64,000 nt of DNA from Candidatus Heimdallarchaeota archaeon (GCA_018238155.1 JABCTZ010000003.1:96001-160000); one strand, 5' to 3'; positions 5,013 through 11,802 are shown, counted from the first letter of the stretch. Numbers and translations are program-made. The notes: a model not told the origin generated them from the sequence alone.

Positions 5013-5152
5013 GGGCCGTTAGCTCAGCTTGGTAGAGCAATAGGCTCATAAGGCTTGCACTTGCGAGTTCCTGCCTGATGATACCTATTGGTCACTGGTT
5101 CAAGGGATACAAATTGCGATTTGTATCTGAACAAATCCTGTACGGCCCACCA
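5013..5152 (+). tRNA. tRNA with CAU anticodon (probably Ile2, else elongator Met), two introns: 5051-5082 (37/38) and 5104-5134 (58/59)
   Basis: Acceptor GGGCCGT/ACGGCCC, D-stem GCTC/GAGC, anticodon stem ATAGG/CCTAT with loop CT-CAT-AA, T-loop TTCAA|AT, encoded CCA. The second intron has BHB helix GTTC/GAAC with AA|G and AA|A bulges and hairpin GATACAAAT-tgcg-ATTTGTATC. The GGGCC start resembles archaeal tRNA-Ile. Confidence 0.9.
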
Positions 5153-5233
5153 TTTTCTTCTTGTTTTGATACAAAATCTGTGTTCTATTTTCATTACTGG
5201 TCGTGTGAGATTGATGGTTGTGTTCCCTTTTTC

Positions 5234-5262
5234 CGCGAATTCAAATCGCGCTGGGCCCACCA
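5234..5262 (+). repeat. tRNA 3'-end fragment, type B (different tRNA)
   Basis: TTCAAAT-CGCGC-TGGGCCC-A-CCA. Confidence 0.8.
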
Positions 5263-5284
5263 AATTCTTACTTTTTATTTTATA

Positions 5285-6361
5285 TCAAGATGTTTCTTTA
5301 ATCCCATCTTTACCGTTTTTATACTTCTTTTCTTCAATGGTAATTTGTTTTTCGAGTTTATTCATTTGTTCAATTGCTAAATTTATATTATCAACTAAAA
5401 CTAATCCATTTGTAAGACACTCTTCAGCACACCATTTCCCTGCAATTATTAAGTAAGGTTTCATAAATTCGGTGATTTTCTTAATCTTTTGGATGTAATT
5501 GTTGATTTGTTTCTTAATTGCATTAAAGATTAATTCTCTACTTTTGTCCCAAATTAATAATGATACAAAAACAATACCTAGGATTATTTTCCATTCATTT
5601 GGTAATGCAGAAACAAAATCATAACCTTTCTTTAGAATATTGACAATTTTATCAATAAACGATATAATAAAAACTAATAATCCCCCAATTATTAATGCTC
5701 CCAATTCAAATGTTAAAATTCCTAATAAGGGGATACTTGTAGCAAGTATTACAAAAGAAGCTGATCCTTGTTGGTAAATACTAACTATTTCACAAGATTC
5801 CTTTGTACCTTTCCATGATTTTACACCATCAAGATCGAGCATATCCTTATCTGTTGTTATTATCGCATGTTTTCCTAATTTCAAGAAAAGAGCTACATAC
5901 TCTACATCTTCTTTATCTCTTTCAGCTATCATAGCTTCTGCTTTTTGATAAGCTACGTCATCATCTAAATTTTGATATGTGATCTTGGTTAAAAATTTGG
6001 AAGCTATAACTTCAATTTCTTTGGTATCTTTATTACAATATTCAGCGATACTTTCAATGTGTTTGTTAATCTCATTTTTTATTTTATCAGGTGCTACACC
6101 TAAAACAAATGGTGATTCAAGTAATTCCAATAGAAACGAATGATTATATTTTACATAGGCTCTAATATGCTTATTTAAAATGCTTGCATCGATAATGATT
6201 TGCAATGATATGTTTTGACCCATTTCCAAAATATTGTCTTCAAAAAAACCTTTGATTTGTTCCATAATACTTAGATCTATGTGTTTTACTATTTCCTTAA
6301 TTATCTCTTTTCTATTGTCAAATTTCTTTCTAATTCGTTCCCAATCCTTTTCGTTAAACAT
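5285..6361 (-). CDS. PIN-domain protein with C-terminal transmembrane helices
   Basis: IIIDASIL, DKEDVEYVAL and IITTDKD acidic PIN motifs; 2-3 hydrophobic segments after the domain. Confidence 0.7.
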   Translation of the reverse strand: MFNEKDWERIRKKFDNRKEIIKEIVKHIDLSIMEQIKGFFEDNILEMGQNISLQIIIDASILNKHIRAYVKYNHSFLLELLESPFVLGVAPDKIKNEINKHIESIAEYCNKDTKEIEVIASKFLTKITYQNLDDDVAYQKAEAMIAERDKEDVEYVALFLKLGKHAIITTDKDMLDLDGVKSWKGTKESCEIVSIYQQGSASFVILATSIPLLGILTFELGALIIGGLLVFIISFIDKIVNILKKGYDFVSALPNEWKIILGIVFVSLLIWDKSRELIFNAIKKQINNYIQKIKKITEFMKPYLIIAGKWCAEECLTNGLVLVDNINLAIEQMNKLEKQITIEEKKYKNGKDGIKETS

Positions 6362-6444
6362 TTTATCTCAAATCCTTTCCCAGTTTTTCTACACATTTCT
6401 AGCATAAAAAACCTTTCGAGATATTACATTCCATAAAATAAGTG

Positions 6445-6478
6445 TTGGTCACTGGTTCAAATCCTGTACAGCCCACCA
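6445..6478 (+). repeat. tRNA(CAU) 3'-end fragment, type A, intron-less
   Basis: TTGGTCACTGGTTCAAATCCTGTACAGCCCACCA, 33/34 identical to the spliced tRNA. Confidence 0.95.
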
Positions 6479-6497
6479 CTTCATATTTATGAAGAAA

Positions 6498-6746
6498 CTA
6501 AATATCTGAAATTATTTCTTTAATTTCTGCATGAGAGGGAATTCCCTCAAACTTTATTTCACCATCTACAACAATAGATGGTACTGCTTTAATGTTATAC
6601 TTCTTTGCTAATACAACAGCATCAGCTGATTGATTTAAATTATATTCAATGACCTGACATTTTTCACATATTGCTTCTTTTAGTTGTCTTAATGCTGTTT
6701 GGCAAAGAGAACAACCCGCTGTGAATATCTCAAATTTATGACCCAT
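6498..6746 (-). CDS. Glutaredoxin/thioredoxin-like protein
   Basis: CSLC active site, AVPSIVVDG motif. Confidence 0.85.
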   Translation of the reverse strand: MGHKFEIFTAGCSLCQTALRQLKEAICEKCQVIEYNLNQSADAVVLAKKYNIKAVPSIVVDGEIKFEGIPSHAEIKEIISDI

Positions 6747-9556: not shown

Positions 9557-10150
9557 TCAAAAATCTGTCTTTAAAGAAAATCGTTTATCAATCCACTTCT
9601 TGATATCTTCTGCCGAATCAGATTCGGGATAATATCCTTTAGGATCACCATCTTTGTTTCTTGCTTCTTCGGCTTTATCAGAGACATCTTCAACTTTTAT
9701 CAAATTCCCTTCTTCAAAATCAAATTTTAGTACAGTTTGAAAAGAAGTAGGGCTTGGATATCCCATATGAACGTATTCCTCTAGAATAGGTTTATTACCT
9801 AATAACAATGATCCCGTGAATGGGAGTTTCAAGTATACATCTTTGTAATAATATCTGAAACCCAGACCACGTAATCCCCCTGGATTATATTCTTTTGTTA
9901 TCTTTAAAGGGGCAGTATTATTTATTATTGGAGGTTTTATTCCATCAGCTGTTCGTACCCAAAATCCTTCCATAAACAATTTATTATCCTTTATTTCATA
10001 TCTCATGATATACCCCCTCCAACAGCCTGTAGATGCAGACCTAGTTTTAATTTCAAACGTTTCCGCAGTATCTAATTCGGAGCCTGTGATTCCCACAATC
10101 ATTAATTGATTTCCTTCATAATAGAATAGATCTGAAGCTTGTTGTGTCAT
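9557..10150 (-). CDS. Hypothetical protein
   Basis: 197 aa ORF with a STGCWRGY motif; function unknown. Confidence 0.7.
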   Translation of the reverse strand: MTQQASDLFYYEGNQLMIVGITGSELDTAETFEIKTRSASTGCWRGYIMRYEIKDNKLFMEGFWVRTADGIKPPIINNTAPLKITKEYNPGGLRGLGFRYYYKDVYLKLPFTGSLLLGNKPILEEYVHMGYPSPTSFQTVLKFDFEEGNLIKVEDVSDKAEEARNKDGDPKGYYPESDSAEDIKKWIDKRFSLKTDF

Positions 10151-10208
10151 GATTTAATACCAGTTCTTATTTATGTTTAATTCTCCTTAAATTTACCGAT
10201 TTTCGCAG

Positions 10209-10231
10209 ATAAAACACGCACAGATTCACTA
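10209..10231 (+). repeat. Possible highly degenerate type B fragment
   Basis: ATAAAACACGCACAGATTCACTA versus the 11470 copy TTCAAATCGCGCTGGATTCACCA; lies 17 bp from the stop of the next minus-strand gene, like other copies. Confidence 0.35.
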
Positions 10232-10248
10232 GATTCTTTCTTTATTTC

Positions 10249-11382
10249 TCAGAAAATAAATATCTCTGTCAGAACATCTGTCCATGTTCTTCCAAATTTA
10301 GTATTGAGGTGTGCTATTGCTGATATGGTATTTTCTGATCCTTTTATTAGCAAATTAGTTGGAACCCAAACACAAATACTAACTGTTTTTTGTCCTTCAA
10401 AATTGTATATAGCTGTCCAAATTCCTTCTCCAATGATATGACTTGTATTATCCTTTATCTGCAGGTCAAAGCTTCTGAATTCTTGGTGCCAGTGCCCTGG
10501 ATTGTTAATTGTTACATGTATAATAATTGAAGTGGTATTAATTTCTCCATGCAAAAAGAAACTGTTTGAATAACCTTCTTTATAATTTACATCAACGACT
10601 CCAAAACTGCTTCCCCAATTAGCGTTGGTTGTATCAATAATCGGGACTAGAATAATGATGAAGAGAATGAATCCTGGCATTACAAAATGCTTTTGTTTCC
10701 TTATCTTTTTGAAGGTGATTGCAAAGAAATTGCGAACCCTCTTTTCTTTATCCTCCACCTTCTCTGCTTCCTTTTCCTCTTTACGTTTGAGTAAACCAAA
10801 TGTTGTTACCATTAGAAAAATAATTACTGCACCAACAAGTAGTATGTAACGTCCCATCTCTCCTTGGAAGTAATAGAATATCCCTCCAATGAATGGTATT
10901 TTTCCAATAATTTTACCCACAACCCTGCTTTCATGGATGTTCAATTCATCTACTCGTCCAGTAGGAATCTCAATTACAAAAACATTATTAGAATTCGGGT
11001 TGTCTCCTTTTGTAGAAAACCAAAAATCTCCTGTTTTATTGTCTTGATAAACTCTCGTTACTCGGTGGACTATCGGAATATTCTCTTCTGTGTGGTTGAT
11101 ATAATTAAAAACTATTACATCACCTACTTTTATTTCTGAAGAATCAACTCCTCGTACTATCAACATATCTTTTCGAATGTCGCCAAATTTTCCTCCTTTG
11201 TCAAGTCTTCTTGAACCGTAGTACGTAGGCTCCATTGATTCGGAAGTTACTACTACGAGAGGAGAATTTGTGTTAAGTGCTAAACAAAGTACTTGATTGA
11301 AACTTAGAATGCCTCCCACACAAATTATTATTAATGCACTAATTGCAATAACATCTTTCCGCCAGCTCGTTTTCTTAGACAT
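10249..11382 (-). CDS. Archaeal/ER-type signal peptidase I (S26B, Sec11-like) with C-terminal extension
   Basis: VVTSESMEP (Ser), IVHRV (His), TKGDN, VVGKI...IPFIG. Confidence 0.85.
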   Translation of the reverse strand: MSKKTSWRKDVIAISALIIICVGGILSFNQVLCLALNTNSPLVVVTSESMEPTYYGSRRLDKGGKFGDIRKDMLIVRGVDSSEIKVGDVIVFNYINHTEENIPIVHRVTRVYQDNKTGDFWFSTKGDNPNSNNVFVIEIPTGRVDELNIHESRVVGKIIGKIPFIGGIFYYFQGEMGRYILLVGAVIIFLMVTTFGLLKRKEEKEAEKVEDKEKRVRNFFAITFKKIRKQKHFVMPGFILFIIILVPIIDTTNANWGSSFGVVDVNYKEGYSNSFFLHGEINTTSIIIHVTINNPGHWHQEFRSFDLQIKDNTSHIIGEGIWTAIYNFEGQKTVSICVWVPTNLLIKGSENTISAIAHLNTKFGRTWTDVLTEIFIF

Positions 11383-11469
11383 TTATCTTTCTCTTCCCTT
11401 ATTTTTCTACGTAGCTTTCTCTAATTTGGATAAAGTATTTTCCTTTATATTAAATATTAGAATCAAGTT

Positions 11470-11497
11470 GTGTGTTCAAATCGCGCTGGATTCACCA
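11470..11497 (+). repeat. tRNA 3'-end fragment, type B
   Basis: GTGTG-TTCAAAT-CGCGC-TGGattC-A-CCA; T-stem can pair with G-U wobble. Confidence 0.75.
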
Positions 11498-11604
11498 CTC
11501 CTTCTCTCTAGATTTCACAAAACATAGTATAATTAAGTAAGAGGTTGATTTTTTGTTCCTTTGTAAACTGTTAGATTTTAATTACTTACTTTCTATTCTA
11601 AATT

Positions 11605-11802
11605 ATGAACAAAGTAACTCTTCAATCAACTATTACTTGTCCGGATTGTGGATTCAAGAAAGAGGAAACAATGTCAACAAATTATTGTCAGTTCAAATAT
11701 AGATGTACAAATTGTGGTTCTATCCTCTCCCCTAAATCTGATGATTGTTGTGTCTATTGTTCCTTTGGAACAGAGAAATGTCCTCCTTTACAAGGAAAAT
11801 AA
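11605..11802 (+). CDS. GDCCVxC-domain small metal-binding protein
   Basis: STITCPDCG...CTNCGSILSPKSDDCCVYCSFGTEKCPP. Confidence 0.9.
   Translation: MNKVTLQSTITCPDCGFKKEETMSTNYCQFKYRCTNCGSILSPKSDDCCVYCSFGTEKCPPLQGK

Follow-up and report, generated by a model that had tools for sequence, protein, structure and literature searches.

Related systems

In the additive islands of 'Ca. Actinomarinales' and Alteromonas, a tRNA serves as the target for the serial insertion of small cassettes; their content varies between close relatives and the cassettes pass between genera (PMC7771536). Together with the tycheposons of Prochlorococcus, these bacterial islands are the closest known kinds to the subject of this study, a tandem array of small gene cassettes separated by copies of a tRNA 3' end that lies downstream of a tRNA(CAU) gene in a metagenome-assembled genome (MAG) of a Heimdallarchaeota archaeon. 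The cassettes stacked in the array are probably non-autonomous and for the most part carry a single gene; a factor acting in trans would move them, with tRNA 3' ends as the sites of recombination. The analysed stretch, hereafter the window, comprises 64,000 nucleotides (positions 96001–160000 of contig C21) of an assembly, G000, of 4.08 Mb in 46 contigs with 32.8% G+C. All genomes with which it was compared are incomplete MAGs (64–92%), and the public sequencing runs that matched the stretch each contained 0.09 or less of the words sampled from it. The literature searched gave no description of such arrays in Asgard archaea, the prokaryotes most closely related to eukaryotes.

Tandem inserts at a tRNA that are separated by partial tRNA copies and vary in content among relatives are also found here. 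The additive islands, however, are bacterial and have not been resolved to one gene per cassette, whereas the present case concerns an Asgard archaeon, about 60 cassettes without an integrase, two tRNA types and genomes that appear nearly devoid of conventional integrases. Tycheposons share with the array an integration at the tRNA 3' end, stacking with partial tRNAs in between, cargo and defence genes, and a residence in hypervariable islands; in contrast to the single-gene units here, they are several kb in length and carry their own tyrosine or serine recombinase along with replication genes (10.1101/2020.12.28.424599). No element-borne recombinase and replication module of this kind was found in the array or on the array contigs of relatives.

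Cassette systems of the integron kind are among the main ways in which bacteria share and rearrange their accessory genes. The array resembles an integron in its ordered, mostly single-gene cassettes, in its toxin-antitoxin pairs and transferases, in the presence of one site per cassette and in the reshuffling between genomes; here too, mostly single open reading frame (ORF) cassettes are gained, lost and reordered, and clusters of attC sites lacking integron integrases (CALINs) are likewise without an adjacent integrase. In contrast to an integron, the array has no IntI, attI or attC, its sites are tRNA 3' ends and its genes are of mixed orientation, which leaves no room for a common promoter. 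With respect to attC, Rfam at its gathering threshold found only tRNAs and the cassette ends are tRNA(CAU) copies, although no dedicated attC search was made. The array is an integron by function and not by any defining part, an analogue rather than a member. The original prediction, made before any comparison with other genomes, had called it integron-like; this description stands for the architecture and falls for family membership. The function of an integron without integron parts has not been described for Asgard archaea in the literature searched.

Integrative mobile elements exploiting Xer (IMEX) and the pdif modules of Acinetobacter provide a further point of reference. They are recombinase-less, often carry toxin-antitoxin or single accessory genes, depend on a host enzyme in trans and can stack; their sites are dif-like and not tRNA-derived. 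With the tyrosine-integrase elements of the SSV, pNOB8 and SNJ2 types, the array has in common that the 3' part of the tRNA is directly repeated on either side of an insert; an integrase gene of these types, whole or split, was not found inside the array. Compared to CRISPR arrays, whose spacers measure 25–50 nt, the units between the repeats are 0.5–3.8 kb in length and carry genes, and the repeats are tRNA-derived. Finally, the family 2 casposons of Aciduliprofundum boonei and Methanosarcina mazei possess a Cas1 integrase that targets tRNA 3' ends by recognition of the T loop (PMC5137440).

The tRNA(CAU) gene and the 3'-end copies

The resident tRNA(CAU) gene (5013–5152, +), designated type A, has an encoded CCA and was identified from Rfam, its sequence and its fold. 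The Rfam match (5013–5149, 42.3 bits, anticodon CAU) contains two insertions. The first is a canonical intron of approximately 32–34 nt after the anticodon (37/38, about 5051–5083) and the second is a 31-nt intron in the T loop (about 5104–5134) that folds as a strong hairpin. ARAGORN missed the tRNA at 5013 when run without the intron option; when introns were allowed, it wrongly joined the 5' half of the gene to the copy at 6478 across a supposed 1378-nt intron.

Downstream of the gene are seven same-strand (+) copies of tRNA(CAU) 3' ends, each running from the variable loop towards CCA. Judged from the sequence, the repeat unit appears to consist of approximately 35–45 nt of the tRNA(CAU) 3' end (variable loop, T arm, acceptor strand and CCA) and a T-rich trailer. 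After each CCA, a T-rich stretch of 7–10 nt recurs, which is of low complexity. The copies are of two types: type A is the end of the resident tRNA, and type B that of another tRNA(CAU), whose full gene is present in a related genome, G003. The first copy (5229–5262, +) is type B with a perfect core (23/23, 5240–5262). It forms part of a longer 3' portion of a type-B tRNA(CAU) gene (5193–5262, +) that includes a 32-nt insert, and since the insert is homologous to an intron at position 53/54 in a sister genus (G011), the copy at 5262 is derived from an intron-bearing gene. Four type-A repeats follow on the same strand: an intron-less repeat at 6445–6478 (33/34), repeats at 7376–7409 and 8093–8126 (30/34 each), and a repeat at 8994–9027 (28/34) from which the acceptor/CCA end has been lost. 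The degenerate B-like repeat at 9500–9533 (+, core 17/23) travels with a zinc-finger cassette; in relatives, the homologous repeats at this end of the cassette are clearly type B. The last repeat (11464–11497, +, 27/34) is again type B. Counting one questionable place near 10231, the order of types is B, A, A, A, A, B-like, ? and B.

The original prediction had listed copies ending at 5262, 6478, 7409, 8126, 9023, 9533, possibly 10231, and 11497. All but one were borne out on the plus strand, with the copy given as 9023 corresponding to the 3'-truncated repeat that ends at 9027. A 25-nt pattern of the repeat gave four matches as compared to none in shuffled sequence, and every match of at least 17/23 to the repeat core on either strand of the 64-kb window lies within the array. 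The candidate at 10231 matches at 10/23, which is background, and thus has no sequence support; a cassette boundary near 10202 is still supported since homology to a related genome, G010, stops at 10202. The absence of the T-loop intron from the copies, the existence of two tRNA types and the origin of the 5262 copy in an intron-bearing type-B gene had all been overlooked.

The T-loop intron splits the conserved repeat core of the resident tRNA(CAU) (TTCAA|ATCC). It is present in none of the downstream copies, nor in the orthologous tRNA(CAU) genes of four relatives (G005, G007, G008 and G010). The tRNA(CAU) gene of the sister genus (G011, L038 4496–4642, −) carries its 32-nt intron at the junction of T stem and T loop (53/54). 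From these two cases, the T arm has gained introns at two places in related lineages. It is an old proposal that introns shield tRNA genes from integration. An intron of the T loop that splits a recombination core would fit this idea, but may be a coincidence.

The T stem of the resident tRNA contains a U·U mismatch, reading CCTGT where its relatives have CCGGT. The four type-A copies, among them those at 6478, 8126 and 9027, share this lineage-specific CCTGT variant with the resident tRNA. Viral contigs gave no match to the type-B repeat. One type-A match among them (L064) was taken as a coincidence, being located on a bacterial-type element with ArdC and its own integrase.

Cassette content

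Each interval between repeats was predicted to hold one gene or one functional pair, and Pfam and NCBIfam analyses agree with the contents that had been listed. The first cassette (5262–6478) encodes a PIN_2-domain protein with membrane segments (5285–6361, −) and has 83.7% nucleotide identity to G008 5971–7001, which is also located behind a type-B repeat. The second contains a divergent pair (6498–7225) consisting of a thioredoxin-fold protein (Thioredoxin_3, 6498–6746, −) and an HxlR regulator (6848–7225, +), and is 91% identical at the nucleotide level to an array contig of G002. The third, encoding an S-adenosylmethionine-dependent methyltransferase (7422–8048, −), is the most widespread cassette; it was found on at least nine contigs with 75–96% nucleotide identity among the copies. 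The copy in the window spans this same range of 75–96% against the others, reaching 94–95% with those of G008, G004 and a further two MAG contigs.

A HicA toxin / HicB antitoxin pair (8284–8810, −) is followed by a treble-clef zinc-finger protein (zf_Tbcl_2, 9213–9407, +), whose whole cassette (9027–9533) is homologous to cassettes of 515–527 bp in G008, G003, G004 (three copies) and G005. The next gene encodes a 197-aa hypothetical protein of unknown family (9557–10150, −), for which homology to G010 ends at 10202. The gene after it encodes an archaeal-type signal peptidase I with a membrane tail (10249–11382, −; TIGR02228, 59.5 bits). The gene for a GDCCVxC protein (11605–11802, +; NF041374) follows the last repeat and is also located behind a repeat in G010. 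The genes occupy both strands within the array and follow no single orientation.

Comparison with related genomes

The repeats are present in 12/12 genomes examined for the order, and arrays of them in most. Comparison of the orthologous tRNA locus, which had been suggested as a check, demonstrated that relatives have gained, lost and rearranged cassettes and that the breaks fall at the repeats. Neither a conserved gene order nor breakpoints unrelated to the repeats, each of which would count against an array, was observed. In G007, the site is empty and the tRNA is followed directly by the orthologue of window positions 15833–16696. The distance between the tRNA and this orthologue is approximately 10 kb here, 22 kb in G003, 24 kb in G010 and 35 kb in G008; across relatives, the island ranges in length from 0 kb to about 35 kb.

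In uncut comparisons, blocks of homology begin or end approximately 10–95 nt from the repeats (5345–6375 for the PIN cassette, 7391/7429–8051 for the methyltransferase, 9036–9526 for the zinc finger, 9557–10202 for the 197-aa gene and 11591–11792 for GDCCVxC). The same cassettes are found in a different order and neighbourhood in seven genomes (G008, G010, G003, G004, G005, G006 and G002) and on metagenome contigs. The methyltransferase cassette is 88–95% identical between species as compared to 66–72% for core DNA, and the cassette identity of 94–95% in the closest cases indicates a recent transfer between species.

G003 and G008 share three consecutive cassettes (523, 901 and 2237 bp) with 92–97% identity. 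The two genomes differ by exactly one 687-bp GNAT cassette and one repeat, inserted between the second and third shared cassettes in G003. A type-B 5' part is well preserved in the added repeat and absent from the single repeat of G008, which resembles the left G003 repeat on its upstream side and the right repeat in its downstream flank. The crossover point itself could not be placed, as there are too few informative positions.

Across 42 closed cassettes, the median length is 1124 bp, the shortest measuring 515 bp and the longest 3784 bp. In most, a single ORF fills the unit whatever its length, including ORFs of 1214 and 677 aa. The cargo across arrays includes toxin-antitoxin pairs, transferases, hydrolases, Schlafen/AlbA_2 proteins, a WD40-Roc-PNP protein and others. 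No recombinase gene was found in approximately 60 cassettes on 12 contigs. The ends of the 42 closed cassettes have no terminal inverted repeats in common, and share only the T-rich trailer after CCA. The locus and its relatives offer a clean comparative record of a gene-sharing platform built on tRNA ends, with an empty site, a one-cassette indel, 95% versus approximately 70% identity, and islands from 0 to approximately 35 kb.

These comparisons bear on two other accounts of the array. The first is that each interval is an eroded remnant of a separate large integrase-bearing element that had inserted at the tRNA in the classical manner. Elements of 8–21 kb bounded by tRNA 3' ends do occur elsewhere in the genome and the identity of the repeats decays with distance from the tRNA, both of which are in keeping with erosion; nevertheless, many genomes contain the same small units, with unchanged ends but other neighbours, there is one ORF per unit regardless of length, cassettes are 95% identical across species with approximately 70% core identity, and no integrase fragments remain in about 60 cassettes. 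The second account is an assembly artefact in the form of a chimeric or collapsed MAG contig. While the array regions of relatives are often on short contigs, as an artefact might produce, the array described here lies inside a contig of 228 kb, and the same architecture and cassettes are found in independent MAGs of different studies and in raw metagenome contigs. Given the shared cassettes, the indel, the one-ORF units and the identity across species, erosion is very unlikely and misassembly can hardly be credited at all. Both had been named beforehand as alternatives to a gene-capture array, and the recurrence of one-gene cassettes with constant ends and the arrays of independent MAGs lend them no support.

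A third account requires no dedicated enzyme. The repeats would be old scars, and ordinary homologous recombination on 35–45-nt repeats after DNA uptake would shuffle the cassettes. The junction of the G003/G008 indel fits a crossover inside a repeat, there is no recombinase in cis, and several cassette genes have chromosomal homologues at core-like divergence. However, the differences between repeats often amount to 15–30% of positions, and about one third of the core is not shared by types A and B, which makes them a poor substrate. Homologous recombination also leaves unexplained the origin of a tRNA end on one-gene units and the same architecture at several other tRNAs; as the sole process, it is improbable.

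Some homologues of cassette genes are located outside of arrays. The GNAT gene of the window (20410–21003, +), whose homologue forms a cassette in G003, has no flanking repeats. This gene (with L054 4127–4814) and a 3-kb cassette of G005 (with G000 C13:83471–86124) are examples of genes that form a cassette in one species and in another are located elsewhere, without recognisable repeats and with a core-like divergence of approximately 70%. These non-cassette homologues hint at either a capture of chromosomal genes or the decay of old arrays.

Recombinases and the Cas1-fold module

The window contains no tyrosine or serine recombinase and no IS110 or rve-type enzyme, in accordance with the original prediction. 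Neither the array nor any of 12 array contigs from relatives has a match to PF00589 or PF16795. The genome as a whole has two PF00589 matches, on contigs C8 and C19, one being a Xer-like protein of 351 aa and the other a sporadic protein of 524 aa (C19). The tyrosine recombinase of C8 scores 38 bits against the integron integrase family TIGR02249, for which the cut-off is 265. Neither an SSV-type integrase nor a serine recombinase, IS110 or rve enzyme was found in a search of the genome. Genomes of the order have 0–6 tyrosine recombinases each, none of them on array contigs. On the basis of these sequence searches, the genome appears to be nearly without conventional integrases. None of the 12 array contigs encodes a recombinase in cis, and the cassettes therefore need a factor that acts in trans. 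The proposal of a recombinase supplied in trans is upheld to this extent; enzymes of the XerA, SSV and pNOB8 types, which had been suggested for the role, are scarce or absent, and the most frequent candidate in their place is an integrase family with a Cas1 fold.

A search for similar arrangements at other tRNAs of the genome, also proposed earlier, identified 3'-end duplicates bounding inserts of 0.5–21 kb. Several of these inserts have a gene module in common that consists of a NERD-type protein, a LAGLIDADG protein, a Cas4-like nuclease, winged helix-turn-helix (wHTH) proteins and a 627-aa protein. The LAGLIDADG protein bears no similarity to the 524-aa tyrosine recombinase of contig C19. 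A profile made from 15 relatives of the 627-aa protein matches the casposase structure 6OPM (E = 9e-4). Its predicted model has a mean pLDDT of 90.5, and a Foldseek search returned only Cas1 or casposase structures among the top 50 matches (best E = 5e-8). A family motif, CHxxT...LDxxE, has a nearly invariant histidine and aspartate. The 627-aa protein of the tRNA-bounded elements is thus predicted to have a Cas1 fold, which was recognised from the profile and the predicted structure; Pfam, NCBIfam and PADLOC did not identify it as Cas1.

Within the genus, the profile of the Cas1-fold family has 0–21 matches per genome, with 10 in G000 and 21 in G005. The copies of G000 are distributed over seven contigs (C6, C43, C13, C42, C17, C19 and C11) and some are fused in ORFs of 1000–1400 aa. 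Such a number of copies is characteristic of genes of mobile elements and not of those for CRISPR adaptation. In G005, the module is located directly upstream of the same tRNA(CAU), and in the window a remnant of the NERD gene is found at the corresponding side (4611–4940). According to a review that summarises Makarova et al. (2020), some Asgard Cas1 homologues lack CRISPR arrays and are 'possibly associated with novel MGE', that is, mobile genetic elements (PMC8730458). The 627-aa protein, too, is a diverged form of Cas1 that is fused to DNA-binding domains and encoded where the genome has no CRISPR array. The literature searched made no link between Asgard Cas1 homologues and tRNA-end repeats or cassette arrays.

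Casposons resemble the system described here in having a Cas1-family integrase, a tRNA 3'-end target, frequent Cas4-like and HTH genes, and possibly tandem insertion (PMC5137440). They differ in possessing terminal inverted repeats, a 14–15-bp target duplication and PolB (PMC5137440), whereas the array has repeats of 35–45 nt that are of mixed origin, no Cas1 gene and no inverted repeats that could be found. The T-rich stretch of 7–10 nt after CCA could be a short duplication comparable to the 14–15 bp of casposons, although it is of low complexity. No PolB was present among the ORFs scanned with Pfam, a scan that was not aimed at PolB.

A second array is present on contig C13 of G000 (175536–179149; L045 4536–8149) with three identical copies of another tRNA-like 3' end (…GGTTCAAATCCGGGATCGCCCACCA). 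These bound a 571-bp HicB-like cassette and a 3-kb unit, followed by PIN-domain genes. The array adjoins a full Cas1-fold module and a Rad51/RadA-family gene (L045 3367–4476). The full tRNA with this 3' end was not found in the assembly. On contig C6, the only differences between a tRNA-Leu duplicate and its tRNA are changes that preserve base pairing.

The Cas1 fold raises an alternative in the manner of CRISPR acquisition, in which a Cas1-fold integrase inserts arbitrary DNA by the tRNA and duplicates its 3' end of approximately 35–45 bp as a target-site duplication. Such acquisition would be consistent with a Cas1 fold in the tRNA-bounded elements of this genome, with casposases, for which tRNA 3' ends are a target and the T loop a recognised feature (PMC5137440), with the drop in repeat identity with distance from the tRNA, with the local CCTGT variant of the type-A copies and with cassettes that have no terminal inverted repeats. 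Duplication of the resident end is at odds with an array that mixes two tRNA types, with the foreign intron of the 5262 copy and with the repeat added in the G003/G008 indel, which has a type-B 5' part that the empty site does not. Moreover, the tRNA-Leu duplicate on C6 has pairing-keeping changes as would an allele from another tRNA, and the same cassettes with identical ends in many genomes are not predicted by a capture of arbitrary DNA. Acquisition of this kind is therefore considered unlikely. The mixed types, the foreign intron, the 5' part of the indel repeat and the tRNA-Leu duplicate instead suggest that each cassette brings its own tRNA-like site.

Proposed mode of cassette exchange

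The stack of trans-mobilised cassettes may be considered in the following terms. The region would be the tRNA-proximal part of a hypervariable island anchored at the tRNA(CAU) gene of this Heimdallarchaeota MAG, and the island a tandem stack of small cassettes, most of them with one gene or one toxin-antitoxin or regulator pair. The tRNA-like segment would act as the recombination site, with each cassette bringing one. Entry of a cassette could take place at the end of the resident tRNA or at any copy already present, through an exchange inside the repeat or an insertion immediately at CCA, and a cassette could be lost by exchange between two copies. The tRNA would remain intact throughout, while cassettes accumulate, swap places and pass between species.

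Exchange at the repeats is proposed to be enzyme-driven and site-specific, and there are three candidates for the activity in trans. The most likely of these may be the Cas1-fold module (wHTH–Zn-ribbon–Cas1, Cas4-like nuclease, LAGLIDADG and NERD proteins). The second would be the conserved Xer-like tyrosine recombinase, acting in the manner of host Xer on IMEX and pdif modules; by this analogy, an archaeal Xer-like enzyme acting on tRNA ends is a candidate only. The third would be host homologous recombination on the repeats. The more specific proposal, that a Cas1-family integrase with Cas4-like, LAGLIDADG and NERD partners is the trans enzyme that inserts or mobilises single-gene cassettes with tRNA ends, is a tentative one and on balance doubtful.

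Several observations weigh against a site-specific stack moved in trans. The Cas1-fold gene is absent from the window, from all array contigs and from every tRNA(CAU) array. The chemistry of Cas1 leads to a target duplication and not a reciprocal exchange, and the cassettes are without terminal inverted repeats. Repeats of 35–45 nt could support shuffling by homologous recombination alone. The CCTGT variant common to the type-A copies and the resident tRNA fits local duplication or gene conversion as well as it fits exchange. Lastly, since the MAGs are incomplete, a recombinase could have been missed.

If the Cas1-fold protein were responsible, the long-argued link between casposons and CRISPR adaptation would become testable on a natural system. 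The array would then be a Cas1-run analogue of an integron and an extant intermediate form that links casposons with CRISPR, its 'spacers' being the size of genes and its 'repeats' coming from tRNAs.

Adjacent features

Upstream of the resident tRNA, the remnant at 4611–4940 (+) is the C-terminal 109 aa of a NERD-type nuclease gene, termed X (620–710 aa), as identified by comparison with relatives. Gene X is part of the Cas1-fold/Cas4-like/LAGLIDADG module, and full-length copies abut the same tRNA in G005 and G008. Downstream of the last repeat is a second, divergent paralogue of triosephosphate isomerase (TIM; 12250–13038, −), for which the canonical gene is on contig C3. The paralogue was found in 1/5 relatives, there on a different contig. 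As an accessory gene, it suggests that the variable island extends beyond the last repeat that can be recognised, perhaps as far as approximately 15.8 kb.

A second intron-bearing tRNA gene is present in the window at 35469–35584 (+, Rfam 48.9 bits), with no 3'-end copies downstream of it in the window. Among the relatives, contig C192 of G008 contains an Rfam PYLIS_3 element, the pyrrolysine insertion sequence of mttB (58.4 bits; L035 2020–2119, −).

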